A stretch of DNA of 64,000 nt from a bacterium (GCA_965200245.1 CBDATS010000004.1:160001-224000); one strand, 5' to 3'; shown: positions 10,848 through 36,693, counted from the stretch's first letter. Translations and numbers: made by a program. The notes: a model not told the origin generated them from the sequence alone.

Positions 10848-10947
10848 CGAACAACCCTTACCAGTGGCATGAACGGGGACGCTAATTAATTATAATTCAC
10901 GGATAGAACCAAGCGGGAGAAGAAGAACCTTTCCGGGTATTATCGCA

Positions 10948-11937: not shown

Positions 11938-12019
11938 GATATGATTCCCTATTCGGGCGAGATTACTGCCATTTAAGCGTCATGATCTTAGTCTAAAATT
12001 GGATCAGATATCAAGAAGG

Positions 12020-20892: not shown

Positions 20893-21493
20893 TTAGTCGG
20901 AATATCTCTTTTTCTGAACGGGTCCTCGCCGTTGCGGAATCTGCGTGTCTCCAGAAAAACGGGTTTGTCGACGGCAGAAAGCTCCACGTCGCAGGCCTGT
21001 TTTCGGGCTTTTCCAAAAATAACGCTTCGTCTCGATCAGCCGGAATTGACACCCATGTTCAGACGTCAGATTCTCTCCGCCGTGTCTTCTCGCCCAAAGC
21101 GCGTCATCATTTATACATTTCCAGCGACAGGCTCGTCGTGTAGTCGCCCGTGCAATGGGTGACGACGAAACCAGCATCCTCCCTGATCCCCACCCGCTTC
21201 ATCAATTTCTGAAAACGATACCCCGTGAAAGCGGTCATCCATCCGGTCCAGCGGGCAACGCAGTGGATGTCACACCTGATCTATACAGTCGGCATCAAGG
21301 GAAACTCCCCGCAGCTGCACTCGAGTTCCTCTTCTATTTCATCGAACGCGCGGAACTTCCACCTTGCGAGATCGAATTCAGGTACCTGCTCACAATGGAG
21401 CAAAGGCCATTGGCCAGTCGTACCCTGGCCCGTCGGAACCCGTTCCCCGTATTTTCCTTCCAACTCATGTCCCTTGGAAAAAAGCACTGTCAT
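20893..21493 (-). pseudogene. Sulfite-oxidase-family molybdopterin oxidoreductase (YuiH-like) pseudogene
   Basis: Fragments in shifting frames: RVPTGQ..WPLLH..PEFDLARWKF; TAG at 21281-21283; IRCDIHCVARW..FVVTHCTGDYTTSLSLE; DDALWA..GENLTSEHG..RL..KRYFWKSPK; DVEL..DKPVFLE..NGEDPF; KRYSD-stop. Confidence 0.85.
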
Positions 21494-22542
21494 TCCAGAT
21501 CATTGCTCTGCCCGGCGGGCGCGAGCAGCACCTTCAGCCCCGCCCCGCGTCGCATGATGTCGAAGCCCCTCTCCCAAGCATCAAGCGGGAGCATATCGGA
21601 TACCATCGCCTCACTGTCCACCCTGCCTGTCTCCAGCAGTTCAAGTGCCAGGAGCCAAGCGGATCGCTTCTGGCCAAACGTGCCTACCAAGCGAATCTCC
21701 TTGAACGCCAACCTGCCCATATCGACTGCAACGGGCGCAACGGGCAGACCCACCTGGAGGATTTCTCCTCCCTTTCTCACCGCCTCGACGCAGACTTCTA
21801 GCACACCGGGCGCACCCGCCGCCTCGACTGCCAAGTCGGCTCCCCAACCATTCGTCTCTTCCATCACCCGCTCGAGAACACACTCTTTCTCGACGTTCAC
21901 CGCCCATTTCGCGCCGAACGAGCGTGCAAGTGCAAGCCTGTGCACATCCTTGCCGGCGCCTGCCACCATCACACGTGCGCCATGGGAGAGTGCGACCTGA
22001 GCGCACCCCAGACCAATCGCGCCCGGTCCCATGACCAGGACGAAATCTCCCTCGCGCACGCAGCATTGCTCGCACATTCCGTGTACGCACACGGCCAGAG
22101 GCTCTGAGAGCGCGGCCGCCTTCAGGCTCACGTTATCGGGCAGGCGGTGAATCGACTCCGCCCTTGTGACCACGTAGTCGGTGAAGGCCCCGTTGCTTAC
22201 CACGCCCGCGATATCACGTTCCTCGCAGCGGTTGTAGCGGCCCGAGGTACAGTGCGGACAGACGCGGCATGTCGACTTCGTGGGTTCGGCCGTCACCCGA
22301 GCGCCGAGAGGAATTCCCTCAACCCCATTGCCTGTTTCTACCACCTCGCCCGAAAACTCATGACCCAGCACCAAGGGTGGGAAATAGTGGAAAAACTCGC
22401 CCGAGGCGATATGCACGTCCGTACCGCAGATACCGGCATGGGCGACCTTGACCTTCACCTGTCCGGGTCCCACGCGAGGCTCCTCCACGTCCATAAGCGA
22501 CATGTTTCCGGGACCTTTCGCCTGTTTCACCAGAGCTCTCAT
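21490..22542 (-). CDS. Zn-dependent medium-chain dehydrogenase (sorbitol/L-iditol/threonine DH-like)
   Basis: GICGTD, LGHEFSG, structural Zn CxxCxxC...C, EPLA, GPGAIG. Confidence 0.92.
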   Translation of the reverse strand: MRALVKQAKGPGNMSLMDVEEPRVGPGQVKVKVAHAGICGTDVHIASGEFFHYFPPLVLGHEFSGEVVETGNGVEGIPLGARVTAEPTKSTCRVCPHCTSGRYNRCEERDIAGVVSNGAFTDYVVTRAESIHRLPDNVSLKAAALSEPLAVCVHGMCEQCCVREGDFVLVMGPGAIGLGCAQVALSHGARVMVAGAGKDVHRLALARSFGAKWAVNVEKECVLERVMEETNGWGADLAVEAAGAPGVLEVCVEAVRKGGEILQVGLPVAPVAVDMGRLAFKEIRLVGTFGQKRSAWLLALELLETGRVDSEAMVSDMLPLDAWERGFDIMRRGAGLKVLLAPAGQSNDLE

Positions 22543-22564
22543 GTTCGCCTCTCGCGGGAAGAAA

Positions 22565-23278
22565 TCAGGCGTTCAACACGGCTACCGCCCGAATCGGTGA
22601 ACCCGACCCACCCCGAATCTTGAGCGGAAGTCCGATGTAGAGGAACTCCTTGCCCACCACCAATTCGATGTTGCACAGGTTCTCCGTGTTCGTGCGACCG
22701 AGTTCGCGGCAAACAAGATGGCAAGGGTATTCCGGACTGGTCGCCATATCCATGCTCGGGGCGTCGGTGCCCACGTTGATGGCCCCGCACTCGCCATAGA
22801 CGTATTCGGCCGCTTCGCGCGTCCAGCCCGCATAGGCCGTCGTGTAGAACGGCGTCGGGTGGTGGCGCTTGAAGTGCCCGTAGGTATAGAGGAGGGTGTC
22901 ACCCGGCTTGATCTCGTAGTTATAGTGGTCAAGCCTGCGCTTCACGTCGTCTACGCCGATGTAGCTGTTGTCCTCCACGTTCTCGAAATCGATAGCGATA
23001 CCCCGACTGTAGAAAGAATCGAAGTTCATCTCGTCGATGTGCGGGGCGTCGGGCGATGGGTCAAGATGACTGATGGAATCCACGTGCGTGGGGCCGTGCT
23101 CGCAGAACTGGATGATACCCGAATAATAGCTCATCTCGCTCTTGAAGCGCCCGCTGGCGGCGCTTTCCTCATGCGTCATGTTCGTCCAGCGCCAGGTATC
23201 GGGGTGCCCGACGAACACAGGCTGACCCTGATAGATATCTTGTGAGAGATCGATGATTTCGTGATTCCTGTACGCCAT
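22565..23278 (-). CDS. Cyclase family metal-dependent hydrolase (kynurenine formamidase/isatin hydrolase-like)
   Basis: IIDLSQ, EHGPTHVDSISH, GTDAPSMD, HL...ENL, PLKIRGGSGSPIRAVA; start ATG 23278 with GGAGGAG RBS. Confidence 0.9.
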   Translation of the reverse strand: MAYRNHEIIDLSQDIYQGQPVFVGHPDTWRWTNMTHEESAASGRFKSEMSYYSGIIQFCEHGPTHVDSISHLDPSPDAPHIDEMNFDSFYSRGIAIDFENVEDNSYIGVDDVKRRLDHYNYEIKPGDTLLYTYGHFKRHHPTPFYTTAYAGWTREAAEYVYGECGAINVGTDAPSMDMATSPEYPCHLVCRELGRTNTENLCNIELVVGKEFLYIGLPLKIRGGSGSPIRAVAVLNA

Positions 23279-23438
23279 GGTGATTCTCCTCCGGCATGTC
23301 TCATTATGAGTAAACTGTTCCAATCCTTGCGATTCGCTGGGTAAAGCACTTTCGTGTAATCTGCGCCAAAACCGGTGCAACAACTCGCCTGTATCCGGGC
23401 ATCTGGCAGGAAATATCATGGGTTCTGAGCGCTTCCCG

Positions 23439-23529
23439 ATATTAGGGTCGAGGTGAGACCTTGTCAACGGAAAGGCTTGGGCGGCGCATCCATCGGGAAT
23501 TGACATCCCGAAGTCCTTCTCCTTACCAT
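23439..23529. promoter_or_regulatory. Back-to-back divergent sigma70 promoters
   Basis: Minus: TTGACA(23467-62)-N17-TAATAT(23444-39); plus: TTGACA(23500-05)-N18-TACCAT(23524-29). Confidence 0.65.
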
Positions 23530-23577
23530 GTTGCAGAAACCCCGACTTCACTTTTTCTTTCGATAGAAAGCATCCCG

Positions 23578-24213
23578 ATGGCGTACACGCGCCGTGTAAC
23601 GGCGATAATTCTCGCCGCAGGCCTCTCGAAGCGCCTGGGACGGAACAAGCTCCTCCTTCCCCTGGGAGGTGAGACAGTCGTCCGCAAGACGGCGAAAGCG
23701 GTATGCAAGAGCGCGGTCTCGGAAGTCATCCTCGTGACGGGCCATGAGCAGGCAATGGTGAGAGAGGCTGTAAAGGATCTCAATGTGCGGCTCACGCACA
23801 ATCTCCGCTACGCCGAGGGCCAAAGCACGAGCATGATCGCAGGAATCGAGGCGGCACCGGAAGACACGGAGGCTTATTTGTTCGTCTTGGGCGATCAACC
23901 CCTGCTCACGCCCGAAATCGTGAACGGGATGATTGCCCTCTATGAAGAGTCTTACCCAGATGCACTCATCACAGTGCCTGTCTTCGAGGAAAAGCGTGGA
24001 AATCCCACCCTGTTCTCCACCGCCTTGAAGGGCGAACTGCTCCGGGCGAGCGGCGATGCAGGTGGCAGGAACGTTATCCGGATACTGGAAACGGAATCTC
24101 CCGCGAGAATCGTTTTTCTCCACCTGCCTAATGATGATATCTTTCTCGACATTGACACAGAAAAAGACTACGAACTTATACTTCGTACATGCCCGAAAGA
24201 CTCATACGAGTAG
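23578..24213 (+). CDS. Molybdenum cofactor cytidylyltransferase-like nucleotidyltransferase (MocA family)
   Basis: AIILAAGLSKRLGRNKLLL, GQSTS, LGDQP, RGNPTLF, GDAGGR, DIDT; start ATG 23578. Confidence 0.85.
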   Translation: MAYTRRVTAIILAAGLSKRLGRNKLLLPLGGETVVRKTAKAVCKSAVSEVILVTGHEQAMVREAVKDLNVRLTHNLRYAEGQSTSMIAGIEAAPEDTEAYLFVLGDQPLLTPEIVNGMIALYEESYPDALITVPVFEEKRGNPTLFSTALKGELLRASGDAGGRNVIRILETESPARIVFLHLPNDDIFLDIDTEKDYELILRTCPKDSYE

Positions 24214-24228
24214 TAAAGGAGCACATCC

Positions 24229-25371
24229 ATGGTGAAGCCGTTTCAGATTGCATCCGGACCACGCGTCCGCTTTGGCCGTGGAGAGACCGTCCATATCGGT
24301 GAAGAAGCGAAGGGCCTGGGTATCGCCAGGCCGATGTTCGTCACAGACCCGGGACTTGCGTCGAGCGGAGCACTCGACACGGTGCTGAAAAGTCTCGAAG
24401 AAGCAGTTCTTGACTATCAGTTCTACGATCAGGCCGAGGCGAATCCCACGGACACGAGCATCATCGGGGCCCGTGATTTCTTCAGCGAACACGGTTGTGA
24501 CAGCTTCATCGCCGCGGGTGGCGGCAGCACGATGGACACCGCCAAGGCGACGCTTGCCCTCATCGCAAACGGAGGCGTGCCGAGCGATTACTACGGACGA
24601 GGCAAGGCCAATACGCCCGGTCCGCCCCTCATCACCGTTCCTACCACAGCGGGCACGGGTAGCGAGGTCACGATGAGCTCTATCGTCACGGACACGAAGT
24701 TCATGATCAAAACCGTCCTAGCGGATGACACGCTCTTCGCGAAACTCGCCGTCGTCGACTCGGCACTCCTCGCCAGGCTGCCCTCTCACATCGCTGCGGG
24801 TGCGATGATGGACGCCCTGACGCACGCCATCGAATCGGTCGGCTCGCCAAACTCGAACCCTTGGACGGAAGCGCTTGCGTTTCAATCCATCGCGCACATC
24901 GGTGAACACGGCAGGGCCTACGTGGACGATCCATCCAACCCGAAAGCCGCAGACGCGATATCGCTTGCGGCGATGCTCGCGGGACGTGCATTCACCAACA
25001 CGGGCCTCGGCATCGTACACTCACTCGCGCATCCATTGGGTGCCTACCACGGGCTGCACCACGGCACAGCGAACGGCATATTCCTGCCGCCCGTCATGGA
25101 GTTCAACCTTCCCGCCATGCGGGAGACTTACGCGCGAATGGCACCGCTTCTGAAAGACGGCGCGGCGAGCACGGCCGAGGCGGCAATAGACGCCATCCGC
25201 GAACTCAACACGGACATCGGCATACCGCCCAGCCTGAGAGCAGCCGATGTCGCGAACGAGAACCTTGATATCCTCGCCAAAGACGCGGCGGAGAGCCACC
25301 AGGTCACGACGAACCCTGTCCCCTCGAATCAAGAGGACATGAAACGCCTTCTGCTGGCCGTGCTCGAGTAG
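24229..25371 (+). CDS. Iron-containing (group III) alcohol dehydrogenase
   Basis: GGGSTMDTAK, PTTAGTGSE, DALTHAIE, HSLAH...HHG metal ligands. Confidence 0.93.
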   Translation: MVKPFQIASGPRVRFGRGETVHIGEEAKGLGIARPMFVTDPGLASSGALDTVLKSLEEAVLDYQFYDQAEANPTDTSIIGARDFFSEHGCDSFIAAGGGSTMDTAKATLALIANGGVPSDYYGRGKANTPGPPLITVPTTAGTGSEVTMSSIVTDTKFMIKTVLADDTLFAKLAVVDSALLARLPSHIAAGAMMDALTHAIESVGSPNSNPWTEALAFQSIAHIGEHGRAYVDDPSNPKAADAISLAAMLAGRAFTNTGLGIVHSLAHPLGAYHGLHHGTANGIFLPPVMEFNLPAMRETYARMAPLLKDGAASTAEAAIDAIRELNTDIGIPPSLRAADVANENLDILAKDAAESHQVTTNPVPSNQEDMKRLLLAVLE

Positions 25372-25374
25372 ACG

Positions 25375-25896
25375 ATGCCCGCAAACGAGATATTGATATC
25401 GGGAGCGCAGATACGACACCGCCTCCCGGTACTCGCTGCCGAGATCAACGAGGCATTGCCCAACGGGCCACTCCATGTCGTGATGATACTGAAGGGCTCT
25501 ATCTTCTTCGGCGTCGACCTCGCCCGTGCCCTTGAACGCAACACCACACTCGGCTTTCTCACGGCTTCGAGCTACGGCGCGGACACGACGAGCAAGGGCA
25601 AAGTAAAAATCGACGCCAGACACCTCGGCGACATCAAGGGCCGAAGCATTTTGCTCATCGACGATATTCTCGATACGGGCCACACGCTTTCGAAAACCAT
25701 CAACGTTCTGCGGGAAAAGCACCCCGCGTCTCTCAGGACGTGCGTATTGATGGACAAGCCCGAGAGAAGGGAAGTCGAGATACAGGCGGATCACGCAGGT
25801 TTCGCCATCGGGAATCATTTTGTCGTAGGCTACGGATTGGACTGCGACGGGGCGTACCGCACCCTGCCGGATATTCGCATCTATACGCCCGAATGA
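25375..25896 (+). CDS. hpt: Hypoxanthine phosphoribosyltransferase
   Basis: ILKGS, SSYG, IDDILDTGHTL, FVVGYGLD...YRTLP. Confidence 0.93.
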   Translation: MPANEILISGAQIRHRLPVLAAEINEALPNGPLHVVMILKGSIFFGVDLARALERNTTLGFLTASSYGADTTSKGKVKIDARHLGDIKGRSILLIDDILDTGHTLSKTINVLREKHPASLRTCVLMDKPERREVEIQADHAGFAIGNHFVVGYGLDCDGAYRTLPDIRIYTPE

Positions 25897-25946
25897 GGAT
25901 TGCCCGAAGGAGACGAACAGGTGGAGGTTGGGGGTCACCCCTGCAA

Positions 25947-26172
25947 GGGGCTTTTGAATGAGTCCTAGTCTCGTGATTCGGTATATATAGCCGTACGAGG
26001 AGGTCTCCCATGGGACCATCCCTTTCTGGGGATCGTCCCATGGGTCATGATTCCGGGTTGTTCACAGGAACGGTCCGCTGCAAGGGCGGTGCGATTTTGC
26101 CCGCCATTCCGGCTTTCGCCGGAATGGCCGAAATGGTCAATTCCGACCGAAGAGGGGTTTTTCCACAACCCC
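25947..26172. repeat. Degenerate MITE/REP-like palindromic element
   Basis: Imperfect terminal IRs (GGGGCTTTTGAATGA / TTTTTCCACAACCCC) and internal hairpins CCCATGGGAC..GTCCCATGGG (26008-26045) and GCCATTCCGGC-TTTC-GCCGGAATGGC (26103-26128). Confidence 0.5.
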
Positions 26173-26216
26173 TCAATCAAACGCCTCGGCCTTTCGTTCA
26201 CACAGGAGATACGGAC

Positions 26217-27320
26217 ATGCCAATTCAGGAAGTAACAGTCTGGGATACTGCCGTGGAAGTCGCCCAGGGCTCGAGAAACCGCTACGGTGGCGCGTCGACG
26301 CTGGAACGCGTCGTGGTTCGCCTGGAAAACGACGATAGCCTTGAGGGCTGGGGCGAGGCCGCACCGCTCATGTATTTCACCCAGGAGATGGGCTCCGAGA
26401 TGGCGTCCACGCTCCGTGAAGCCGCTCCCCGCATTCGGGGGTTGACGGCGGATGACCTCCTGGCTGCGCTGGATGGCGTGGCGGATTTCAGGGGAATGGG
26501 CGCCGCGCGCACCGCGCTCGAAATCGCCGCTATGGACCTCGCCGCCAAAATCAATCAGACGCCCTTCGATCATGTTTTCGGCGGGCGCAAGAGAAACGTT
26601 GTTATGCTGGACGGCCCCATCGGCCTACTCTCGCCTGAGGAGGCCGTCAAAAAGGCGGAGACACTTGTGGATAAAGGTGTACACACCCTCAAGGTGAAAT
26701 CAGGCGTCGAGGTAGAGGCGGATGCGGAGCGCATCGCGAGGCTGCGCGACAGGTTCGGCCCCGAAATCAAGCTGAGGACGGATGCGAACGGCGGATTCAC
26801 ACCAGAGGAAGCGCTGCGCTTCACGGACAGAATGGTCGAGATCGGCATCGAACACTTCGAACAGCCCGTGCTTCCCGCAGAGGAGAAACACATCGACGTA
26901 TTCCGCGAAATCCGTGCCAGGGGGATGCAGGTCGCGGTGGATGAATCCTTGTTCTCCATCGACGACGCTCGCCGCCTGGTCGATTTGGAGGCCGTTGACA
27001 TCGGCCTTGTCAAGATCGCCAAGTTCGGCGGCCCCAGGGATGCCTGGGAGGTCGCGCGTGTATTCGACGTCGCCGGAAAACCCGCTCTGCTCAGTTCGCC
27101 ATACGAATCGTATATCGCCAAATCGGCGGGGTTCGCCATTGCGCTGTCGCTTGAGAACGCGGACAGGGCACACGAACTTGCCCATCTTCTCGATGAAGAA
27201 CCCTACGCCGAGTGGGACCACTCCATATCAGGCGGTGAGTTCACGGCGGTGGATGCAGCGGGGCACGGAGCGGTCGGTATTCCCGCCCGAATCGAGAAGA
27301 TAGCCAAGGCTGCCGTATAG
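26217..27320 (+). CDS. Enolase superfamily, muconate lactonizing enzyme (MLE) subgroup protein
   Basis: GWGEA, KVK (KxK), D-A-N, EQP, DES, K at strand 6; start ATG 26217 with AGGAG RBS. Confidence 0.88.
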   Translation: MPIQEVTVWDTAVEVAQGSRNRYGGASTLERVVVRLENDDSLEGWGEAAPLMYFTQEMGSEMASTLREAAPRIRGLTADDLLAALDGVADFRGMGAARTALEIAAMDLAAKINQTPFDHVFGGRKRNVVMLDGPIGLLSPEEAVKKAETLVDKGVHTLKVKSGVEVEADAERIARLRDRFGPEIKLRTDANGGFTPEEALRFTDRMVEIGIEHFEQPVLPAEEKHIDVFREIRARGMQVAVDESLFSIDDARRLVDLEAVDIGLVKIAKFGGPRDAWEVARVFDVAGKPALLSSPYESYIAKSAGFAIALSLENADRAHELAHLLDEEPYAEWDHSISGGEFTAVDAAGHGAVGIPARIEKIAKAAV

Positions 27321-27362
27321 CGAGAACGATTCTTTATTCGATTGCCCAGGAGAATGAATGCG

Positions 27363-28277
27363 ATGAGTCTCCCCGCCAAGGTCGAGATCGTCGAGGTCGG
27401 CACGCGAGACGGCCTCCAGAACGAAAAGCAATACATCACGCCCGAGGACAAAATCAGACTCCTCGACACCATCACCGACGCGGGCGTTCGCCGCATCGAG
27501 GTGACGAGTTTCGTGAGCCCCAGGCATGTTCCCCAGTTGCGGGACGCCAGGGAAGTGCTGGCGGGCTGCAAGCGCAACCCCGAGGCCGAATATGAGGCCC
27601 TGATCCCCAATGTGCGCGGTATGGAGCGCGCCCTTGAATACGAACTCGACGGCGTGATGCTGTTCGTCTCCGCCAGCGAGACGTTCAACCTGAAGAACAT
27701 CCGCGCGAGCCGGAAGACGATGCTTGGCGTCGCCCGCGAAGTCGCAAAAATGGCGCTGGGCGCAGGGCTGAAACTCCGGGGCGGCGTGGTCGCCACGTTC
27801 GGCTGCCCATATGAGGGGCGCATCTCCTATGAGGACGTCGAATGGATTATCAGCGAGTACGTGGACATGGGTTGTGGGGAAATCGGCTTGGCTGATACCG
27901 TGGGAATGACGAACCCGGCGGAAATCAAAAGGCTCACCAATCATATACGGGAGAAGTTCCCTTCTGTCCGCTACGCGCTGCACCTCCACAACACGAGAGG
28001 GATCGGCCTCGCCAACTTGCTGGCGGGGCTGGAAGTCGGGGTGGATACGTTTGACACCTCCATCGGCGGCCTGGGTGGCTGTCCCTTCGCACCGCGCGCC
28101 ACGGGCAACATCGCCAGCGAGGACACGATCAACATGCTCCATGAGATGGGCATCAAGACAGGCGTCAACCTGCCGAAACTCCTGGAAGCCGTATCCCATG
28201 CAGAGAAAATTTTGAACCGGCAGTTGCCGGGACAACTCCTTCACGCCGGCATCCCCGAGTGGGAAATCGCATCCTGA
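27363..28277 (+). CDS. HMG-CoA lyase family (DRE-TIM) acyl-CoA lyase
   Basis: EVGTRDGLQNE, LADTVG, HLHNTRG, GGLGGCPFAPRATGN. Confidence 0.92.
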   Translation: MSLPAKVEIVEVGTRDGLQNEKQYITPEDKIRLLDTITDAGVRRIEVTSFVSPRHVPQLRDAREVLAGCKRNPEAEYEALIPNVRGMERALEYELDGVMLFVSASETFNLKNIRASRKTMLGVAREVAKMALGAGLKLRGGVVATFGCPYEGRISYEDVEWIISEYVDMGCGEIGLADTVGMTNPAEIKRLTNHIREKFPSVRYALHLHNTRGIGLANLLAGLEVGVDTFDTSIGGLGGCPFAPRATGNIASEDTINMLHEMGIKTGVNLPKLLEAVSHAEKILNRQLPGQLLHAGIPEWEIAS

Positions 28278-28336
28278 GCCGACACCGCGTGTCGCATCAG
28301 TTTTTTGCATAGTCCGTCCGGCGAGTTCGGAAATAC

Positions 28337-28375
28337 TTGACTCCATGGCGAAAAACTGATTGTATGCAATATACA
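28337..28375 (+). promoter_or_regulatory. Internal promoter region with GntR/FCD-type operator upstream of the decarboxylase genes
   Basis: TTGACT at 28337; near-palindrome ATTGTATGCAAT (28359-28370) overlapping TGTAT-N5-ATACA; -10 not clearly resolved. Confidence 0.55.
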
Positions 28376-28392
28376 CTTTCAGGAGAAGAGCG

Positions 28393-29955
28393 TTGCCGCC
28401 CGAGCCCGAACGACCAGATCCAATAGACGAACTGAAAGCCCTCACTTCCAGGGCGCAGGCACGGGGAGGCGAGGCGTCGAAACAGTGCCAGCACAAGCAG
28501 GGAAAGTTAACCGCCAGAGAGCGTATCGACCTCCTGATCGACCCCGATAGTTTTTCCGAAATCAACCTGTTCGTCGAGACGCGCGCAACGGATTTCGGCA
28601 TGGACCAGCGCCGAATGCCCGGTGACGGTGTCATCACCGGCAGTGGGTACGTGAACGGCCAACTCGTGTTCGTGGTCTCGCAGGATTTCGGCTCTCTCGG
28701 CGGCTCGCTGGGTGAGATGCACGCGGAGAAAATCGTGAAGATACAGGAACTCGCCATGAAGGCGGGCGCGCCCATTATCACCATCCTCGATTCGGGCGGC
28801 GCGCGCATCCATGAGGGCGTTCTGGCGCTTCATGGCTACGCGCAAATCTTCCACAACAACACCCAGGCATCGGGCGTGATCCCACAAATATCGGTCATCC
28901 TCGGCCCCTGCGCGGGCGGCGCTGTCTACTCGCCCGCCATCACGGACTTCGTCTTCATGGTTGACGGGCTGAGCAAGATGTTCATCACCGGCCCGGAAGT
29001 CATCAAGGCGGTAACGGGAGAAGACGTATCCGTCGAGGAGTTGGGCGGTGGCGCGGTACACAGTTCGACCAGCGGGAACGCGCACTTCCTCGCAAAAGAC
29101 GAGCGTGAGTGCTTCGCGATGGTGAAAAAACTGCTCTCATTTCTGCCATCGAACAATATGGATGACCCTCCTCTTGCCGATACGTCCGAGTGGCCGCCGG
29201 ATGAAAATCCCGAACTCGACGGCATCGTCCCAGCGGAGGCCACGAGTGCCTATGACGTGCGTGACCTGGTGGCCAATGTTTTCGACGACGGCGATTTCCT
29301 GGAGGTTCACGCTGATTTCGCCAAAAACATCGTCGTCGGATTCGCACGCCTGCGGGGAAGGCCTGTTGGCGTCGTGGGAAACCAACCCAGGCACTTGGCC
29401 GGCGTCCTGGACATCGACAGTTCCGACAAGCTCGCCCGCTTCGTTCGCTTTTGCGACGCCTTTAACCTGCCCATCGTCAACTTCGTGGACGTGCCCGGCT
29501 ATCTGCCCGGCACGCAGCAGGAATACGGTGGGGTTATCCGTCACGGGGCCAAGGTGCTCTTCGCATACAGTGAAGCGAACGTGCCGAAAATCGCGCTCAT
29601 CGTCAGAAAGAGCTACGGCGGCGCCTACATCGCGATGAGCGGGTTCGGCCTGGGCTACGACCGTGTGCTGGCGTACCCATTCGCCGAAATCGCGGTGATG
29701 GGTCCCGAAGGGGCAGCCAACATCATCTTCCGGCGCGAGATCGGCGAAGCCGGGGATCCCGAAAAAGTCCGGGGGGAGAAGATAGAAGAATACCGCAGGC
29801 TTTTCGCCACACCCTACACGGCGGCGAAATACGGGCTGGTGGACGTCATCATCGAGCCTCGACACACGAGGGACGCGCTTATTCGCGCGCTCGAAATGAC
29901 CGCGCACAAGCGCGAGGACAGGCCGCAGAAAAAACACGGTAACATTCCGCTGTAA
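28393..29955 (+). CDS. Acyl-CoA carboxyltransferase; methylmalonyl-CoA decarboxylase alpha-subunit-like (MmdA/PccB family)
   Basis: GKLTARERI, PGDGVITG, DSGGARIHEG, GPCAGGAVYSP, DVPGYLPG, YGGAY, KKHGNIPL; TTG 28393 with AGGAG RBS. Confidence 0.93.
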   Translation: MPPEPERPDPIDELKALTSRAQARGGEASKQCQHKQGKLTARERIDLLIDPDSFSEINLFVETRATDFGMDQRRMPGDGVITGSGYVNGQLVFVVSQDFGSLGGSLGEMHAEKIVKIQELAMKAGAPIITILDSGGARIHEGVLALHGYAQIFHNNTQASGVIPQISVILGPCAGGAVYSPAITDFVFMVDGLSKMFITGPEVIKAVTGEDVSVEELGGGAVHSSTSGNAHFLAKDERECFAMVKKLLSFLPSNNMDDPPLADTSEWPPDENPELDGIVPAEATSAYDVRDLVANVFDDGDFLEVHADFAKNIVVGFARLRGRPVGVVGNQPRHLAGVLDIDSSDKLARFVRFCDAFNLPIVNFVDVPGYLPGTQQEYGGVIRHGAKVLFAYSEANVPKIALIVRKSYGGAYIAMSGFGLGYDRVLAYPFAEIAVMGPEGAANIIFRREIGEAGDPEKVRGEKIEEYRRLFATPYTAAKYGLVDVIIEPRHTRDALIRALEMTAHKREDRPQKKHGNIPL

Positions 29956-29971
29956 GGATAAGGATTTTCCC

Positions 29972-30292
29972 GTGGACGCATTCATACCCGGATTATTGCT
30001 GACGGTCGTCGGCCTGGGCGTCGTTTTCGGCTCCCTGATCGTGCTGATGGTGATCATTATGCTTCTGGAGAGGTTCTTCGGCTCAAGAAGTGAGGAAACA
30101 GGCACGGGCACGCATGAGCAGAAGTCCTCGCCCCAAAGTGACGATCTGGAAATTGTCCTCGCGGCCGCTGCCGGATATTTTCTTGAAACCGAAACCCCCG
30201 AAATATACGTTCCTCCAGTGCGCCGGAACGCGGATTCCTTCTGGGCGCGAACTGCCCGCCAGGGCAGGCTCAGCCACCGGAGGCGGCAGTGA
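29972..30292 (+). CDS. Na+-decarboxylase membrane anchor subunit (OadG/MmdD family)
   Basis: N-terminal TM GLLLTVVGLGVVFGSLIVL, DDLEIVLAAAA, C-terminal W..TAR; position within the cluster. Confidence 0.82.
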   Translation: MDAFIPGLLLTVVGLGVVFGSLIVLMVIIMLLERFFGSRSEETGTGTHEQKSSPQSDDLEIVLAAAAGYFLETETPEIYVPPVRRNADSFWARTARQGRLSHRRRQ

Positions 30293-30693
30293 GAAACTTC
30301 CACCTGACCATCAACGGAAAACGATACGCTGTGAGCGTGGAGCGCGTCCCCGGATCGAACGACCTCGAAATCACGCTAGACGGGCAGACGCACCGCGTGC
30401 AGGTGGAAGAAGAGGAGAAAGCGGCCGTTCCCCGCCCCTCCGCTGCCGCACGCAAGTCCCCGCCCCGGTCTTCGAGCGCCAGCGGCAAAATACTGGCTCC
30501 CCTGCCGGGCGTGGTGGTCTCCGTCGAGGTCACTCCGGGCGATTCGGTACGAGCAGGAGATACGCTCCTGGTGTTGGAAGCCATGAAGATGGAAAACGTG
30601 ATTCTCGCGGATTCGGACTGTGTCGTGCAGGCGGTTCACGTGGCGAAAGGTGACAAGGTGGAAGCCTCGCATCTGCTGATGGAGGTCTCATGA
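30289..30693 (+). CDS. Biotin carboxyl carrier subunit (MmdC-like)
   Basis: [13 protein letters not shown] biotinylation site, Ala/Pro/Ser linker. Confidence 0.93.
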
Positions 30694-31814
30694 GCCGCCT
30701 GTTCCACTCAATCGCCGAGTTCATCTCCCTCACCGGGTTTTCGTCGCTGGACTCAGGCGACATGCTCATGCTCGCCATCTCCTGCCTCCTGCTCTATCTG
30801 GCCATCCAGAAAGGCTTCGAGCCCCTGCTGCTGGTGCCCATCGGATTCGGCATGCTGCTCTCGAACCTGCCAGAAACGGGTATATTCGATGAAGGCGGCC
30901 TCATCCAGTATTTCTATTTCGGGGTGAAAGCAGGCGTCTTCCCGCCGCTCATCTTCATGGGCATCGGCGCGTTGACCGACTTCGGGCCGCTGCTGGCGAA
31001 TCCGAAAACCTTGCTGCTCGGCGCCGCGGCACAGTTCGGTATCTTCGCCACGCTGCTCGGAAGCATATTCCTGGGCTTCAATCTTTCGGAAGCGGGCGCC
31101 ATCGGCATCATCGGCGGAGCAGACGGTCCTACGGCCATCTATACCGCTTCCAAGCTGGCACCCCACCTGCTCGGCCCTATCGCCGTCGCCGCTTACAGCT
31201 ACATGGCGCTCGTCCCGATGATTCAGCCCCCTATCATGAAGGCGCTCACGACCGGGGAGGAGCGTTCGCGGGAGATGGTGCAGCTAAAAGAAATCGAGAA
31301 GCCCGTCCGCATCCTCTTCCCCATCGTCACGACACTGCTCACGGGTCTTCTCCTGCCCTCGGCGGCGCCTCTCATCGGTATGCTTATGCTTGGGAACCTC
31401 TTCCGCGAGTGCGGGGCCGTGGAGAGGCTCCTGAAGACCTCCGAAGACTCGCTGCTCAACATGGTGACGATATTCCTCGGCGTCTCGGTGGGTGCCTCGA
31501 TGACGGCGCACACATTTCTCAAGTGGCAGACCATCGGCATTCTCCTGCTTGGCTTCATCGCTTTCGGCATCGGCACGGCCACCGGCGTGATCTTTGGCAA
31601 GATCATGGCTGCGTTCAGCCGCACGCCGATCAATCCCCTCATCGGTGCCGCAGGAGTGAGCGCAGTTCCCATGGCAGCGCGTGTCGTCCAGAAAGTGGGG
31701 GCCGACGAGAATCCGGGGAATTTCCTGCTCATGCACGCGATGGGCCCGAACGTTGCGGGCGTCATTGGATCGGCGATAGCGGCCGGCGTGCTCATATCAC
31801 TCATCCAAACCTGA
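30690..31814 (+). CDS. Na+-translocating decarboxylase beta subunit (OadB/MmdB family)
   Basis: [56 protein letters not shown]. Confidence 0.96.
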
Positions 31815-31826
31815 GGAGCGACATTC

Positions 31827-33017
31827 ATGGCTGGACCACTCGAAGGAATCCGGGTTGTAGACCTTACGCGCATTCTCGCGGGCCCTTATTGCACCATGAT
31901 GCTGGGTGACATGGGCGCGGAAATCATCAAGATCGAAAACCCTGACGGCGGAGACGACACGCGCGGCTGGGGCCCACCCTTTTTGAACGGGGTGAGCACA
32001 TACTTCATCTCGATCAACCGCAACAAGAAAAGCCTTACGCTCAACCTGAAAGACGAGCGCGGCAAGGAGATCCTGCGGAATATGATTCGCAAGAGCGACA
32101 TCATCGTGGAGAACTTCCGGCCCGGTACGCTGGACAAGCTCGGCTTTCCCTGGGAGGAGATCCATCGCATCAACTCCGCGATGATATTCGCCTCGCTCTC
32201 GGGCTTCGGCCAGACCGGCCCCAGAGTGAGCGAGCCCGGGTTCGACGTGGTAATCCAGGGTGAAGGCGGGATCATGAGCATCACCGGAGAGCCCGACGGC
32301 CCACCCAACAAAGTAGGCGCATCCATCGCGGACATCACGGCAGGCATGCTCGCCGCCCAAGGGATCCTGCTTTCGCTCTACCACCGCGAGAAGACGGGAG
32401 TGGGGCAGATGGTCGACATCGGCATGCTCGACGGGCAAGTGGCCCTGCTCACCTACCACGCGAACAACTACTTCGGAACCGGAAAACTTCCGCCCAGGCG
32501 GGGGAACAAGCATCCTTCCATCACGCCGTATGAGACCTATGAATGCAAGGACGGGTACTTCAACCTCGGCGTGGGCAACGACAGCCTCTGGCGCAGGTTC
32601 TGCGACGCCATGAGGCTGGGGGATATCAAGGAAGATCCCAAATTCGCCGTCAACAAGGACCGAGTGGACAATCGTTTGGAACTCCAGGAAATCCTCGACG
32701 CCTTCTTCGCGGAGAAGACGGTGGGAGAGACGCTCGAGACCCTGCGGGTAGCGGGCATCCCCTGCGGCCCCATCAACAATCTTGCGCAGGTACTGAACGA
32801 CCCCCAAGTGATCGCGCGTGAGATGGTGGTGGACATCGACATGCCCGTCGCCGGCCCCACGAAGGTGACCGGCGTGCCCATCAAGCTCTCGAAAACCCCG
32901 GGCGCCGTCCGCACACCCCCGCCCTCGCTGGGCCAGCACACCGACGAAGTACTCGAATCCGTTCTCGGCATGGACGAGGCGCAAAGAAACGCCCTTCGAG
33001 AAGAAGGCGTGGTATGA
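31827..33017 (+). CDS. Family III (CaiB/BaiF/Frc) CoA-transferase
   Basis: GPLEGIRVVDL, AGPYCT, NRNKKS, ENFRPG, GFGQTGP, catalytic Asp in SIADITAG. Confidence 0.94.
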   Translation: MAGPLEGIRVVDLTRILAGPYCTMMLGDMGAEIIKIENPDGGDDTRGWGPPFLNGVSTYFISINRNKKSLTLNLKDERGKEILRNMIRKSDIIVENFRPGTLDKLGFPWEEIHRINSAMIFASLSGFGQTGPRVSEPGFDVVIQGEGGIMSITGEPDGPPNKVGASIADITAGMLAAQGILLSLYHREKTGVGQMVDIGMLDGQVALLTYHANNYFGTGKLPPRRGNKHPSITPYETYECKDGYFNLGVGNDSLWRRFCDAMRLGDIKEDPKFAVNKDRVDNRLELQEILDAFFAEKTVGETLETLRVAGIPCGPINNLAQVLNDPQVIAREMVVDIDMPVAGPTKVTGVPIKLSKTPGAVRTPPPSLGQHTDEVLESVLGMDEAQRNALREEGVV

Positions 33018-33100
33018 GGTTTTTGCAATGGACATTTTCGGGCACTTTCCACGCCCCTTGGCGCTGATCTCCCGTCAGGCAATTTCGGGGGATTATTAAG

Positions 33101-33805
33101 GTGCGGATACCGGGCGTACAGATCGAAAAACCCAAATCCCTGAGCAAGATGGTATCCGAGCAGATTAAGGACGCTATCCTGAGCGGCATCTTCCAGCCGG
33201 GAGACAAACTGGTCGAGACGACGCTTACCGAATCCATTGGCGTGAGCAGAACGCCGTTGCGCGAAGCCTTCCGGGAACTCGCGGCGGAAGGCTACATCAC
33301 CGTCGTCCCACACAAGGGGGCGCACGTAAGCCTCGTGAGCGAGGATGAGGTTCTCGACATCTACGCCATCACGAGCGTACTGGAAGGTCTCGCCACGCGC
33401 CTCGCAACCCCAAACCTCCGCGAAGGCAGATCGAACGAGAAGCTCCAGGAACATTTCGAGCAGTTGAAGTGCCACCACGAGCGCGACGAGGTGGACGCCT
33501 ACTGGGCGGCGAACCGCGAATTTCACCACCACATCACGAGCGCTTGCGAGAACTCGCGCCTCCAGGAGCTCATTGAGAATCTGAGACAGCAGATCATGAA
33601 GACTCGCGTGGTGACGCTCCACGCGCCCGGGCGTCTCGACAGTTCCATGGACGAGCATGGTGAAATTCTTCAGGCCATTCTTGACGGCGAAGCGAGAGCT
33701 GCCGAACGCCTGGTGATCCGGCACCTCGAAATTCAGGGGAAATTCGTGCTGGACCTCATCAAGAAATCACCGGAAAACGAAAGCGATCCGACGGAGAACG
33801 ACTAG
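33101..33805 (+). CDS. GntR family transcriptional regulator with FCD domain
   Basis: wHTH GVSRTPLREAF..L..EG; FCD NREFH..N..EH..I..AI..H. Confidence 0.93.
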   Translation: MRIPGVQIEKPKSLSKMVSEQIKDAILSGIFQPGDKLVETTLTESIGVSRTPLREAFRELAAEGYITVVPHKGAHVSLVSEDEVLDIYAITSVLEGLATRLATPNLREGRSNEKLQEHFEQLKCHHERDEVDAYWAANREFHHHITSACENSRLQELIENLRQQIMKTRVVTLHAPGRLDSSMDEHGEILQAILDGEARAAERLVIRHLEIQGKFVLDLIKKSPENESDPTEND

Positions 33806-34030
33806 GCGAACACCTGCCGTACAACAAGTCCATCTTCCACCCCCAAGGCATCCGCCACGCCTGCCTACGGGAGACGACACCTGGCATTCTGCATTCACAA
33901 TCCCCGCGTCGAAGGCCGTTTCCTTTCCCATCACTGCGTGGGTCGTTCCACGAGAGCCCTCCCACAGCCCCCAGGCGTCAAGGCGGCGTGGTATTCATCC
34001 TGGTGGAGATTTAGCTGATCAAACTGATTT

Positions 34031-34471
34031 TCATGAGCTCTCCGTCCCTTCATCCACGACATGGAACGTGCTCTCCGCCTCTGCGACGGCACGGCCGTCT
34101 TCCGCCCTTATCGCCCTTCCCTCCAAAACGGCGAACCTTCCTTTTCGCTTCTTGAGCCTCCCCTCCAGGAGCAAGGGTGTGCCCACAGACAAGGGGTCAT
34201 GATAGCGAATCTCGCTTCTCGCCGAGTAGGCGCGCATACCCTTCAAAAACAGCCAGTTCGCCATCACGTCATCAAGCACGCTGAAGACGATGCCCCCGTG
34301 TGTCACGCCGTCGTAACCCTGGTGGACGGACTGCGGCGTGAACTCGGCGAGGCAAACATCGCCATCCAGCCGAAACGCGATTTTCAGGCCAATCGGGTTC
34401 GTGGTTCCACATACGAAACATCCGTCTGCGTCCGGACGCCCTCTTTCATCGGTCAATGGTTCGGTCTCCAT
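34031..34471 (-). CDS. PaaI family (hotdog) thioesterase
   Basis: CFVCGTTNPIGL, HQGYDGVTHGGIVFSVLDD; start moved to ATG 34471 because GTG 34507 lies inside the terminator hairpin. Confidence 0.88.
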   Translation of the reverse strand: METEPLTDERGRPDADGCFVCGTTNPIGLKIAFRLDGDVCLAEFTPQSVHQGYDGVTHGGIVFSVLDDVMANWLFLKGMRAYSARSEIRYHDPLSVGTPLLLEGRLKKRKGRFAVLEGRAIRAEDGRAVAEAESTFHVVDEGTESS

Positions 34472-34484
34472 TTCAGTTCGCTTC

Positions 34485-34518
34485 AAACAAAAAAGGAGAG
34501 CCTCCACGGCTCTCCTTT
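34485..34518 (-). terminator. Intrinsic terminator of the alpha operon (after rplQ)
   Basis: AAAGGAGAGCC-GTGGA-GGCTCTCCTTT followed by TTTGTTT on the minus strand. Confidence 0.85.
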
Positions 34519-34542
34519 CAGGAGTGTCTCACATTCCAGTTC

Positions 34543-34965
34543 CTACACTTCGCCTTGCGCCTCTCTTCTTTTCCGGCGGCGTTCACGCCTCTCTTCTTCT
34601 CTCGTGGTGTCTCTGTCGACGAGTTCGAGGAGCGCCATCGGGGCACTGTCTCCCTGCCGGGGAAGAAGGCGCAGAATGCGGGTATAGCCGCCGGGTCGCT
34701 CTAGGTATCTCGGGGCGATGGTATCCATGAGCTTGGCAACCGCGGCGGGAGTCTTGAGATAAGAGGCCACCTGACGCCGTGCATGAAGCGTGCCCTTCTT
34801 TCCCGTTGTGATGATCCGTTCCGCGTGGCGACGAACCTCCTTGGCCTTCGCCAGCGTCGTTCGTACCCTCTCCTCGTCTATAAGAGAAGTAACCATATTC
34901 CTCGTCATTGCGTCGCGATGCTTCGAGGTGCGTCCCAGTTTTCTGCCGTGCCATCGGTGCCGCAT
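34543..34965 (-). CDS. rplQ: 50S ribosomal protein L17
   Basis: MRHR..GRKLGRTSKHR, RPGGYTRI. Confidence 0.97.
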   Translation of the reverse strand: MRHRWHGRKLGRTSKHRDAMTRNMVTSLIDEERVRTTLAKAKEVRRHAERIITTGKKGTLHARRQVASYLKTPAAVAKLMDTIAPRYLERPGGYTRILRLLPRQGDSAPMALLELVDRDTTREEERRERRRKRREAQGEV

Positions 34966-34975
34966 CTGCCCAATC

Positions 34976-35995
34976 CTATTCTGTTTCGGAATCTTCCCCC
35001 TCGCTCAGGTTGAGCGGGGAGATATCCATATAGCCCAAATCCATGCCGAGGGATAAACCCATCCCGGTGAGAATATCACGAATTTCATTCAAACTCTTAC
35101 GGCCGAAGTTTCGCGTTTTCAGCAAATCGGCTTCTGTTTTTTGCACCAACTCACCCAACGTGCGAATGCGTGCGTTTTTCAGGCAGTTGTAGCTGCGAAC
35201 CGAGAGTTCAAGTTCTTCCACGCTTCTGCCGAGGCTCTCCACCATTCTTTGCTTGCGTTCATCCACCTTGGGCGCCTGAGGCGCCGCCTCTTCCTCGAAG
35301 TTAATGAATATCTGCAGGTTGTCCTTGAGAATCTTTGCCGCGTGGGCGACCGCGTCCAAAGGAACGACGGTTCCATTCGTCTCCACTTCGAGAATCAACT
35401 TGTCGTAGTCCGTAATGTCGCCCACCCGGGTCTTCTCCACCTGGAAGGTGCAACGGCGGATAGGAGAGAAGATGGAGTCTATCGGGATGAACTGCGGGCC
35501 GAGGGTCAAATCCACGTTTCTCTCCGCGGGCACGTAGCCGCGGCCGACGTTCGCCACGAGTTCCACGTCAAGGTCCGCTTCCTCGTTCATGTTGGCTATT
35601 TCAATGTCGGGAGTCAGCAACCTCACACCGGCCGGCACTTCGATGTCGCCCGCCTTGAACACGCCGGCGGAACCCGCATGCCGATAGTGCATGTGAACCG
35701 GCAGATTTTCCGATTCCACCTCGATGACAACATCCTTGAGGTTGAGGACGATTTCCGTCACATCTTCCATGACGCCCGGAATGCTCGAAAACTCGTGATA
35801 CACGCCCTCGATACGCACGCCCGTGAAAGCGGCCCCCTGCAGTGAAGACAAAATCACACGACGAAGCGCATTTCCCAATGTAACGCCATACCCGCGCTCC
35901 AGGGGTTCGGCGACAAAACGACCGAAAGTTTCGTTCAAGCTCTCCTGCTGCGGCTCCAAGCCGGCAAGTTTGACTAGCTCGGCAATCGCTGTCAT
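34976..35995 (-). CDS. rpoA: RNA polymerase alpha subunit
   Basis: [36 protein letters not shown]. Confidence 0.98.
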
Positions 35996-36060
35996 CTACT
36001 GGTCCTCCGTACGGCGGTTGACCACTTTTTGAAAGAAGTAGGTCGAAACAGGCTCGTGAT

Positions 36061-36693
36061 TTATTTGGAATACAGTTCCACTATTTGCTGTGCGTTGATG
36101 TCAACCTGGGAATCTACCAGAATCGGCGGCTCCAGGACGCGCGCCTGAAGGTCGGCATGATCCACGTCGAGCCAAGCGGGAGCACCTCGGACCTTCCCCT
36201 TCTCCGCGCTTTGTACGACCAACGCGATTTTCTTGCTTTTCTCCTTGATTTCGACGACATCGCCCTTTCGCACAGCAAACGCCGGACGATTCACTTTCCT
36301 GCCATTCACGCGAATGTGATTGTGAATCACCAACTGACGCGCCTGGTTGCGCGAATCCGCGAAACTCGCCCGGTATACGACGTTGTCGAGCCTGGATTCG
36401 AGCAGCGAAAACAGGTTGTCACCAGTGACACCCTTGCGCCGTGCTGCTTCCTTGTAATACAGCCGGAACTGTTTCTCCAGCACGCCGTATACCCGACGCG
36501 CCTTTTGCTTCTCGCGAAGCTGCAGTCCGTATTCGCTCAACTTTCCACGCGAACGCGCGGCACCGTGCTGTCCCGGCGGGAAACTACGTTTCTCGAAAGA
36601 ACATTTGTCACCGATGCAGCGGTCGCCCTTCAGGAAGAGCTTCATGCCCTCTCTACGACAAAGCCGACAAACCGAATCCTTGTATCGTGCCAA
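36061..36693 (-). CDS. rpsD: 30S ribosomal protein S4
   Basis: [31 protein letters not shown]. Confidence 0.97.

Follow-up and report, generated by a model that had tools for sequence, protein, structure and literature searches.

The MmdADCB complex, a Na+ pump, is the methylmalonyl-CoA decarboxylase of Veillonella and Propionigenium. To our knowledge, acetyl-CoA carboxylase (ACC) is regarded as universal and essential in bacteria, catalysing the ATP-consuming step with which fatty-acid synthesis begins. Here, we analyse a 64,000-nucleotide stretch of bacterial DNA (GCA_965200245.1 CBDATS010000004.1:160001-224000; “the window” below means this whole stretch), in which genes for a pump of the Mmd build are followed by those for a family III CoA-transferase and a GntR-family regulator. 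On balance, and with moderate confidence, we read the encoded complex as a reversible Na+-coupled acyl-CoA carboxylase/decarboxylase, which would supply malonyl-CoA, and probably methylmalonyl-CoA, by Na+ influx, and to which the transferase would feed free dicarboxylates. We argue from which genes are present and which other carboxylases are absent, from conserved residues and from synteny.

For Nitrospina gracilis, a reversed oxaloacetate decarboxylase (Oad) was proposed to carboxylate pyruvate (Lücker et al. 2013, PMC3578206, excerpts), and the same paper cites a 1984 report by Dimroth and Hilpert, which, by its title, concerns the carboxylation of pyruvate and acetyl-CoA by reversal of the pump. 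Our literature search, with most subscription journals outside its reach, found no proposal of a Na+-driven acetyl-CoA carboxylase in any lineage. The component families of the complex described here are all known; their wiring, and the physiological direction that it implies, would be new.

A four-part biotin enzyme of the Na+-pumping type

The genes concerned, in window coordinates, are:

28393-29955 (open reading frame (ORF) 28360-29955), + strand: carboxyltransferase, alpha subunit, PccB/MmdA/12S type (PF01039, E 7.8e-191)
29972-30292, + strand: OadG/MmdD-type membrane anchor (PF04277, OAD_gamma, E 8.5e-9)
30289-30693, + strand: biotin carboxyl carrier protein (BCCP; PF00364, Biotin_lipoyl, E 4.3e-16, AMKM)
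30690-31814, + strand: OadB/MmdB-type Na+-translocating carboxybiotin decarboxylase subunit (PF03977, OAD_beta, E 8.8e-159)
31827-33017, + strand: family III CoA-transferase, SUGCT-like (PF02515, CoA_transf_3, E 1.8e-136)
33101-33805, + strand: GntR-family regulator with FCD ligand domain (PF00392, 67.2 bits; PF07729, 86.4 bits)

From the carboxyltransferase to the transferase, the genes are separated by a 16 bp gap, two successive 4-bp overlaps and a 12 bp gap. An earlier reading of the window from sequence alone (the sequence-only reading) had listed these six genes with this spacing; profile matches and ORF calls bear out all of them, and the motifs that it quoted are all present in OadB.

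OadB scores 512.7 bits on TIGR01109 (cut-off 190.6) and 528.6 bits on PF03977, with GGADGPT at residue 142, AYSY at residue 168 and the third of the quoted motifs at residue 352. When aligned with Salmonella OadB (6iva_A), the equivalents of D203, Y229, N373, G377, S382 and R389 are all identical. The role of these six residues (Klebsiella/Salmonella numbering) is presumably the one defined by mutagenesis in the Dimroth laboratory. The biotinylation motif of the carrier is intact (MK at residue 99, within EAMKME), and OadG scores 31 bits on TIGR01195, below the cut-off of 36. The anchor and the MKM-motif carrier share an operon with the OAD_beta subunit, as in Na+-translocating biotin decarboxylases. 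The product of the four core genes is a membrane-bound biotin enzyme with the build of the Na+-pumping methylmalonyl-CoA and oxaloacetate decarboxylases; Na+ coupling is predicted for it.

The alpha subunit is PccB/MmdA-like and not GcdA-like, as the sequence-only reading had held. Among PDB entries it matches Thermotoga 1vrg at 680 bits, Sulfolobus 1x0u at 640, Streptomyces PccB (ScPccB) at 604 and the 12S subunit of transcarboxylase at 603, as against 97 and 92 bits for the GcdA structures 3gf3 and 1pix. A glutaconyl-CoA decarboxylase was thus ruled out. On the mmdA model TIGR01117, the subunit scores 796.3 bits against a cut-off of 998.8, which places it outside the curated mmdA set.

We next considered the residue associated with acyl-CoA specificity. 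In the alignment to 1xnw_A, which we take to be a D422I mutant, position 422 is Ile in both that chain and the alpha subunit, in the context GGAY-I, and this Ile aligns with D422 of ScPccB and I420 of ScAcCCB. Excerpts of PMC7835884 state that ScPccB D422 corresponds to I420 of the promiscuous ScAcCCB, that Ile at this position goes with carboxylation of acetyl-, propionyl- and butyryl-CoA, and that D422I lets propionyl-CoA carboxylase (PCC) accept acetyl-CoA, with I420D leaving propionyl-CoA as the only substrate. All 42 pump-linked carboxyltransferases compared carry Ile or Val here and none carries Asp: Ile is found in 38 (including that of locus L070, described below), Val in three and in the Desulfarculaceae protein. 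Because the position is Ile or Val and never Asp, the alpha subunit should handle acetyl-/malonyl-CoA besides propionyl-/methylmalonyl-CoA. The residue informs substrate range and not reaction direction. A PccB/AccB-type carboxyltransferase with an acetyl-CoA-compatible residue, which is one component of an ATP-dependent ACC or PCC, is present in the window.

The pump carboxyltransferase has no ACC beside it in its genome or phylum

The window belongs to a genome of 3.68 Mb in 15 contigs (95.8% complete, 8.1% contamination). Carboxyl_trans has a single match in it, the pump alpha subunit, and the single, weak match to the ACCA profile falls inside the same gene. No accC over cut-off was found in the genome. 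Biotin_carb_C and PYC_OADA match once each, both in a 1184-aa pyruvate carboxylase ORF which has its own carrier and lies far from the window. OAD_beta is present in one copy, and a complete-looking type II fatty-acid synthesis (FAS II) operon (plsX, fabH, fabD, fabF) is found within the window at 8185-13129 on the - strand.

In agreement with the sequence-only reading, the window itself encodes neither a biotin carboxylase nor a mutase, and the best candidate for an epimerase is likewise found elsewhere in the genome. The notion that nothing feeds methylmalonyl-CoA holds for the window but fails for the genome, because three MM_CoA_mutase paralogues (one of them accompanied by a separate B12 subunit) and a borderline epimerase candidate (114.9 bits against a cut-off of 114.95) are encoded elsewhere. 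No mutase adjoins a pump in this genome or in any locus examined, and the epimerase is likewise unlinked. One of the mutase clusters (G000:C4:961233-965310; L106 5233-9310) also holds a B12-binding subunit, a CoA-transferase paralogue, a HAD hydrolase, an enoyl-CoA hydratase and acyl-CoA dehydrogenases, and looks like a catabolic acyl-CoA mutase cluster.

We then surveyed 51 species-level genomes of the phylum, mostly metagenome-assembled genomes (MAGs), labelled Nitrospinota, Nitrospinaceae or Tectomicrobia. AccA over cut-off was found in none of the 51, while the same procedure detected it in three of four outside MAGs and in seven of 14 control genomes. Weak hits to the AccA profile were seen: the top one in each genome falls in the pump-linked gene, and weaker second ones in MccB-type ORFs. 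Biotin_carb_C was detected in 28 of the 51 genomes, in 16 within Pyc-sized ORFs, in 11 within ORFs of ~330-690 aa and in one (G022, a fragmented assembly) within a 638-aa ORF, which is taken to be a Pyc fragment. The remaining 23 genomes have no match to it, among them the single-contig genomes G023 (100% complete), G034 (99%) and G004 (98%). PYC_OADA was found in 23 genomes; neither it nor Biotin_carb_C was found in 19. OAD_beta and a PccB-type carboxyltransferase are each found in 49 of the 51 genomes, side by side, misses and partial hits being in fragmented assemblies, and fabD over cut-off is also found in 49, including 29 of 29 high-quality genomes. A second carboxyltransferase, of the MccB type, occurs in 11 genomes; the one examined matches 3u9r (the beta subunit of Pseudomonas methylcrotonyl-CoA carboxylase, MCC) at 764 bits and 1vrg at 272, and scores 300 on the mmdA model. 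A leucine pathway through MCC was considered for the locus and rejected, this genome having no MccB and the MccB-type genes of the 11 relatives sitting elsewhere. Thus, an ATP-dependent carboxylase for acetyl- or propionyl-CoA, of whichever known architecture, is seen in none of the phylum's genomes.

On this comparison of gene inventories, the pump appears to be the lineage's only enzyme able to interconvert acetyl- and malonyl-CoA or propionyl- and methylmalonyl-CoA. We propose that, at least in biosynthesis, it operates in the carboxylating direction because FabD needs malonyl-CoA and the pump carboxyltransferase is the only enzyme able to make it. In 19 to 23 genomes, OadB working in reverse would be the only conceivable source of carboxybiotin, since biotin carboxylase is absent there. 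To the broader proposition, that the whole phylum lacks an ATP-dependent ACC and draws all its malonyl- and methylmalonyl-CoA from an Mmd-type carboxylase driven by the sodium-motive force, with the transferase as an ATP-free entry under a GntR switch, we give an even chance.

Three further observations emerged from the survey. Firstly, PKS-like giant ORFs of ~3,000-3,500 aa, scoring 145-171 bits on the fabD profile, are present in G014, G015, G017-G019, G022, G025, G026 and G031; these would also draw on malonyl- or methylmalonyl-CoA. Secondly, Thermotoga maritima was the sole control genome with no Biotin_carb_C match, and it matches OAD_beta, Carboxyl_trans, PYC_OADA and fabD, a gene pattern shared with the phylum and suggesting that the Na+-driven solution may recur in other lineages. 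Thirdly, in an Entotheonellaceae MAG (G054, locus L043) AccA likewise stays below cut-off, the hits being weak ones within PccB-like ORFs.

The family III CoA-transferase is tied to the pump

The transferase contains a full-length PF02515 domain (residues 5-372, covering positions 1-366 of the 366-position profile, 455.5 bits). Its best PDB match is 9br6, succinate-hydroxymethylglutarate CoA-transferase (SUGCT), at 343.6 bits over the full length. It falls below the curated cut-offs of NF052585 (391 against 750) and of the formyl-CoA transferase model TIGR03253 (315.6 against 504.2). For the SUGCT class (EC 2.8.3.13), a table in a review lists succinyl-CoA and malonyl-CoA as donors and hydroxymethylglutarate (HMG) as acceptor.

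Synteny was scanned with one genome per species, giving 78 loci that encode relatives of the transferase. In 30 of the 31 loci with at least 70% identity, oadB lies directly upstream of the transferase gene, and the remaining locus is cut by a contig end; the expectation that the transferase would be conserved beside homologous pumps is thereby borne out. Among the 47 loci at 59% identity or less, a pump was found in one only, L070, from a Vicinamibacterales MAG. The gene order there is a MatC_N/CitMHS dicarboxylate carrier, transferase, carboxyltransferase, BCCP and OadB, in a genome with a true AccA (322.7 bits), and this module looks like the catabolic malonate-type loop which the sequence-only reading had put forward. 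Another 12 loci, taken from elsewhere in the phylum (other genera and families), all have carboxyltransferase, carrier and OadB, with the transferase present in 10 and the GntR gene in nine; in most loci of both the close and the wider sets, the GntR gene is kept 3’ of the transferase gene. A transporter of the major facilitator superfamily (MFS) heads the operon in G008. Two genomes of 2.1 Mb each, G005 and G006, have the four pump genes only, between housekeeping genes and with neither transferase nor regulator; we count this retention of the core independently of the transferase towards a core carboxylase role.

In a quick maximum-likelihood (ML) tree computed with IQ-TREE, the phylum's pump-linked transferases form one clade (SH-aLRT 96) and the L070 transferase is placed elsewhere. 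The pairing of pump and transferase is therefore ancient and vertically inherited in the phylum, with a separate origin or transfer in the acidobacterium. A Desulfarculaceae cluster unites a 53%-identical transferase with a carboxyltransferase, a mutase, a B12 subunit, SucC and a fumarase; its transferase sits in a different subclade. The neighbours of the 52-59% identical transferases in other phyla are mixed (EtfAB, purine and other genes) and give no clue to the substrate; those of L059, the transferase closest to that of L070, are uninformative as well.

Other transferase-bearing loci were also noted. Three from deltaproteobacterial MAGs (L055, L077 and L081) encode a stand-alone carboxyltransferase, 48% identical and with Trp at the specificity position, together with two family III CoA-transferases, an M20 peptidase and TRAP/TAXI transporters. 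Neither OadB nor a carrier was seen in these clusters, which may represent a different CoA-dependent decarboxylation system. In the window's own genome, tblastn finds 19 full-length family III paralogues (30-53% identical) and one fragment, a very large number for 3.7 Mb. A second transferase (37% identical) is paired convergently with an HMGL-like lyase gene (39% identical) beside ABC permease genes, at G000:C4:989149-991346 (L107 5123-7347).

Transcription units, a candidate operator and the upstream neighbours

Upstream of the pump genes, the following features are found:

24229-25371, + strand: Fe-alcohol dehydrogenase
25375-25896, + strand: Hpt
26010-27320, + strand: enolase-superfamily (MR_MLE) protein (PF13378, E 1.8e-35)
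27342-28277, + strand: HMG-CoA lyase family protein (NF004283, 352.8 bits, cut-off 246)
28280-28294, + strand: terminator-like hairpin and T-run, 3’ of the lyase gene
28337-28342, + strand: promoter-like -35 hexamer TTGACT
28361-28375, + strand: perfect palindrome TGTATGCAATATACA, a GntR-type operator candidate

Two TTG codons could start the carboxyltransferase gene. That at 28393 is the likelier, and the start given by the sequence-only reading is preferred, because AGGAG precedes it and the TTG at 28360 falls within the palindrome.

The palindrome begins eighteen bases past the -35 hexamer and occurs once in the window. Taken alone, it carries no statistical significance in a single window, where 0.31 occurrences with at most 3 mismatches are expected, and its weight comes from conservation among relatives: palindrome and -35 box are identical or one base off in 17 close loci whose upstream flanks have diverged or bear insertions, and three more distant loci have a shorter variant, TGTATACAATACA. 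A scan for consensus promoters gave no site in 25800-34200, and the TTGACT site was not called. A scan for hairpins with T-runs gave 7 sites in the region against 7.2 expected, so that the hairpin at 28280-28294 is weak on its own. The regulator matches both an N-terminal GntR winged helix-turn-helix and a C-terminal FCD domain, as expected of a GntR/FCD protein. Together, these features suggest that the genes for alpha subunit, OadG, BCCP, OadB, transferase and, probably, GntR regulator form one operon with its own promoter and a GntR-type operator candidate, and we read the enolase-lyase pair as a separate transcription unit.

The sequence-only reading had the right gene set for the operon, but overlooked the enolase-superfamily and HMG-CoA lyase genes directly upstream. 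The lyase protein passes the NF004283 cut-off and matches the HMG-CoA lyases in the PDB at 228-255 bits. Its gene could have been taken for an OadA-type carboxyltransferase; this was ruled out, the protein passing the lyase model, scoring 44 bits on the oadA models and having no PYC_OADA domain. The lyase gene lies upstream of the carboxyltransferase gene in 28 of the 30 close loci, the remaining two being truncated, and is limited to family f1: the five wider loci of f1 have it, and none of the seven in f2 and f4. For the enolase-superfamily protein, which 13 of the loci at 70% identity or more encode, the best PDB matches are of the dipeptide epimerase/MLE type, at 114 bits or less. Enolase and lyase, together with a SUGCT-like transferase, could form a route for hydroxymethylglutarate or a related hydroxy acid. 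The gap between the lyase and carboxyltransferase genes, 115 bp in the window, is 0.5-1.1 kb in close relatives (L008-L013, L018 and L023); a DUF429 gene is found in it in L010 and L015, other loci have no long ORF, and L018 has a DDE transposase further upstream.

RNA evidence was sought in contigs from two metatranscriptome libraries of the study to which the probable source sample belongs. At 99% identity or more, they cover 26 and 29 of the 30 bins of window 21000-36500, and one contig spans the oadB/transferase junction (31494-31886); this coverage is thin and even over everything, with possible carry-over of DNA, and allows no inference on expression or co-transcription. Separately, in three runs a single contig each connects 34857 directly with 36370 and leaves out 1512 bases, among them those of rpoA; the junction has 20 letters on its shorter side and is probably due to a repeat or a foreign contig rather than to a deletion.

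Proposed mechanism and its alternatives

We propose the following sequence of events. Na+ inflow through OadB would drive carboxylation of the biotin carrier. The carboxyltransferase would then pass the carboxyl group to acetyl-CoA, producing malonyl-CoA for FabD and FAS II. Propionyl-CoA would probably also be carboxylated, yielding methylmalonyl-CoA for the mutases encoded elsewhere. In sum, the sodium-motive force, rather than ATP, would power acyl-CoA carboxylation by the complex. The co-transcribed transferase would load malonate or methylmalonate onto CoA, with succinate as partner, as a salvage or entry route, and the same complex could then use or decarboxylate the malonyl-CoA so made. 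The GntR-FCD protein would probably repress the operon at the palindrome over the promoter until an acid or acyl-CoA ligand binds. Thus, flux direction, Na+ coupling, the substrates of the transferase and the site and ligand of the regulator are predictions of the model.

Several points weigh against it. Direction is unreadable from sequence, and the case is one of sequence comparison. The context looks catabolic, with a transferase, a GntR regulator whose operator candidate lies over the promoter, an MFS transporter in G008 and MatC in L070, and it would be unusual for an inducible repressor to control a housekeeping ACC. The energetics are tight: the table in the review gives about -37 +/- 12 kJ/mol for the related decarboxylation of methylmalonyl-CoA, reversal would need about 2 Na+ at high sodium-motive force, and some relatives are groundwater MAGs. 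The biotin carboxylase domain encoded in this genome and in 27 others (in Pyc, an MCC partner or an AccC-like protein) might charge the free carrier. Most of the 51 genomes are MAGs, the window's genome has the completeness and contamination given above, and the family searches used a loose first pass that can miss weak matches. Finally, scores on both TIGR01117 and NF052585 are below cut-off, so that the exact substrate classes are not fixed.

Among the alternatives, the one that survives best, which we nevertheless consider unlikely, is the headline of the sequence-only reading: a catabolic two-step loop. Here, imported malonate or alkylmalonate would receive its CoA from acetyl-, propionyl- or succinyl-CoA through the transferase, the pump would decarboxylate the product and save energy by exporting Na+, and GntR would induce the operon in the presence of the acid. 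Conservation speaks for such a module, the transferase gene adjoining oadB in 30 of 31 close loci, being present in 10 of 12 wider ones and belonging to a single pump-linked clade, and so does the L070 analogue, in which MatC, transferase, carboxyltransferase, BCCP and OadB stand together in a genome with an ordinary AccA. The MFS transporter heading the G008 operon, the operator-like palindrome at the promoter, malonyl-CoA among the SUGCT-class donors in the review's table and an Ile that permits malonyl-CoA at the specificity position are all consistent with it. As the main role here, however, the loop would leave the phylum without any route from acetyl-CoA to malonyl-CoA. It is also difficult to reconcile with the lack of a transporter gene in the window's operon, with the 2.1-Mb genomes G005 and G006 that retain the pump and have neither transferase nor regulator, and with retention in 49 of 51 genomes, unusual for a niche catabolic trait. 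Thus, the original proposal finds support in part, from the conserved module and its MatC-bearing analogue, but not as the main role in this lineage, the carboxyltransferase being the sole one and ordinary ACC absent. Reverse, Na+-driven carboxylation, which the sequence-only reading had offered as its alternative, fits better, because the pump has the sole carboxyltransferase (MccB-type ones in the phylum set apart), ACC is absent and G005 and G006 keep the pump without transferase or regulator.

We hold it to be rather improbable that the locus serves a methylmalonyl-CoA pathway in the first place, in which the transferase would swap CoA between succinate and propionate, mutase and epimerase would link succinyl-CoA to methylmalonyl-CoA, and the pump would either decarboxylate the latter, taking succinate to propionate as Propionigenium does, or carboxylate propionyl-CoA, for assimilation of propionate to succinate without ATP. 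The genome does encode the three mutase paralogues, one with a B12 subunit, and the epimerase candidate at 114.9 against 114.95 bits, the pump is the only possible link between propionyl-CoA and methylmalonyl-CoA in it, and SUGCT-type enzymes use succinyl-CoA. In the Desulfarculaceae cluster, the 53%-identical transferase stands with carboxyltransferase, mutase, B12 subunit, SucC and fumarase, but that transferase belongs to a different subclade, and in none of the loci examined, nor in this genome, are mutase or epimerase genes linked to the pump. The source of malonyl-CoA would still be missing. The pathway is compatible with Na+-driven carboxylation, to which it would add a second substrate, and does not exclude it.

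Lastly, we regard as very improbable that an ATP-dependent biotin carboxylase encoded elsewhere (Pyc, MCC alpha or AccC-like) charges the carrier while OadB/OadG drain excess carboxybiotin or decarboxylate separately, since, against the biotin carboxylase domain in 28 of 51 genomes and the stand-alone AccC-like protein of G008 (599.5 bits, NF006367 cut-off 597; that genome has neither a second carboxyltransferase nor PYC_OADA), 23 of 51 genomes, three of them single-contig, have no biotin carboxylase and retain carboxyltransferase, carrier, OadB and fabD, and this genome's only biotin carboxylase domain is fused in a pyruvate carboxylase with its own carrier.

If Na+-driven carboxylation holds, these bacteria would have a natural ATP-free route to malonyl-CoA, of relevance for energy-limited lifestyles and metabolic engineering, and the pump reversal shown in vitro in 1984 would acquire a physiological role. 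The lipid synthesis of these bacteria, marine and sponge-associated, would be tied directly to the sodium cycle, and the automated labels “methylmalonyl-CoA decarboxylase” and “propionyl-CoA carboxylase beta” would miss the actual role. Independently of the carboxylase reading, the genes of the transferase-pump module, joined by MatC in the acidobacterium, are candidates for CoA-dependent, Na+-coupled use of malonate.

Comparison with known systems

Sporomusa malonica is reportedly a CoA-dependent, Na+-coupled malonate user, which our literature search did not confirm. Like the module described here, the oxalate loop of Frc and Oxc combines a family III transferase with decarboxylation of a CoA ester that regenerates the CoA donor. 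This likeness is conceptual only: Oxc is a soluble ThDP enzyme and energy is obtained through an antiporter, whereas here a primary Na+ pump is involved, and the transferase scores 315.6 against 504.2 on the Frc model. SUGCT (9br6) is the closest solved relative of the transferase, and in family f1 an HMG-CoA lyase gene lies upstream; here, however, the protein is below the bacterial succinate-glutarate cut-off (391 against 750), and the lyase is in a separate unit and absent from f2 and f4.

The malonate decarboxylase Mad of Malonomonas rubra and the present complex are both biotin-dependent, OadB-type Na+ pumps acting on an activated malonyl thioester, with a transferase that activates free malonate, as far as the review describes Mad. 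Mad depends on MadA and on a dedicated acyl carrier protein (ACP), which bears a special prosthetic group; in the present complex, a family III transferase and free CoA are proposed to take their place. TIGR03136 scores 183.8 bits against a cut-off of 596.9, and no search was aimed at mad/mdc genes.

To ScAcCCB, TfAcCCB and Sulfolobus 1x0u, which belong to actinobacterial and archaeal acyl-CoA carboxylases whose beta subunit is of the PccB/AccB type, the carboxyltransferase is similar at 585-640 bits, and it has the Ile of promiscuous acetyl-/propionyl-CoA use. Those enzymes rely on an ATP-dependent biotin carboxylase alpha subunit; here, OadB and OadG stand in its place.

With the Oad of Nitrospina gracilis, the proposed system shares its logic, a Na+ pump in reverse replacing a missing ATP-dependent carboxylase. 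According to PMC3578206, that pump has a true OadA, acting on pyruvate, and the gene order oadA, oadB, oadG. Here, the alpha subunit is of the acyl-CoA type, the predicted product is malonyl- or methylmalonyl-CoA, and a full pyruvate carboxylase is present in the genome.

The closest likeness in build is to MmdADCB, compared through the family models TIGR01117, TIGR01109 and NF047903. Common to both are the four-part build, the type of gene order, a PccB/MmdA-like alpha subunit, the anchor, the carrier and the Na+-site residues of OadB. In the locus described here, by contrast, the alpha subunit is below the mmdA cut-off (796 against 998.8), mutase and epimerase are unlinked, and the host lineage has no other ACC or PCC; the operon adds a family III CoA-transferase and a GntR regulator, and the direction we propose for the pump is carboxylation.

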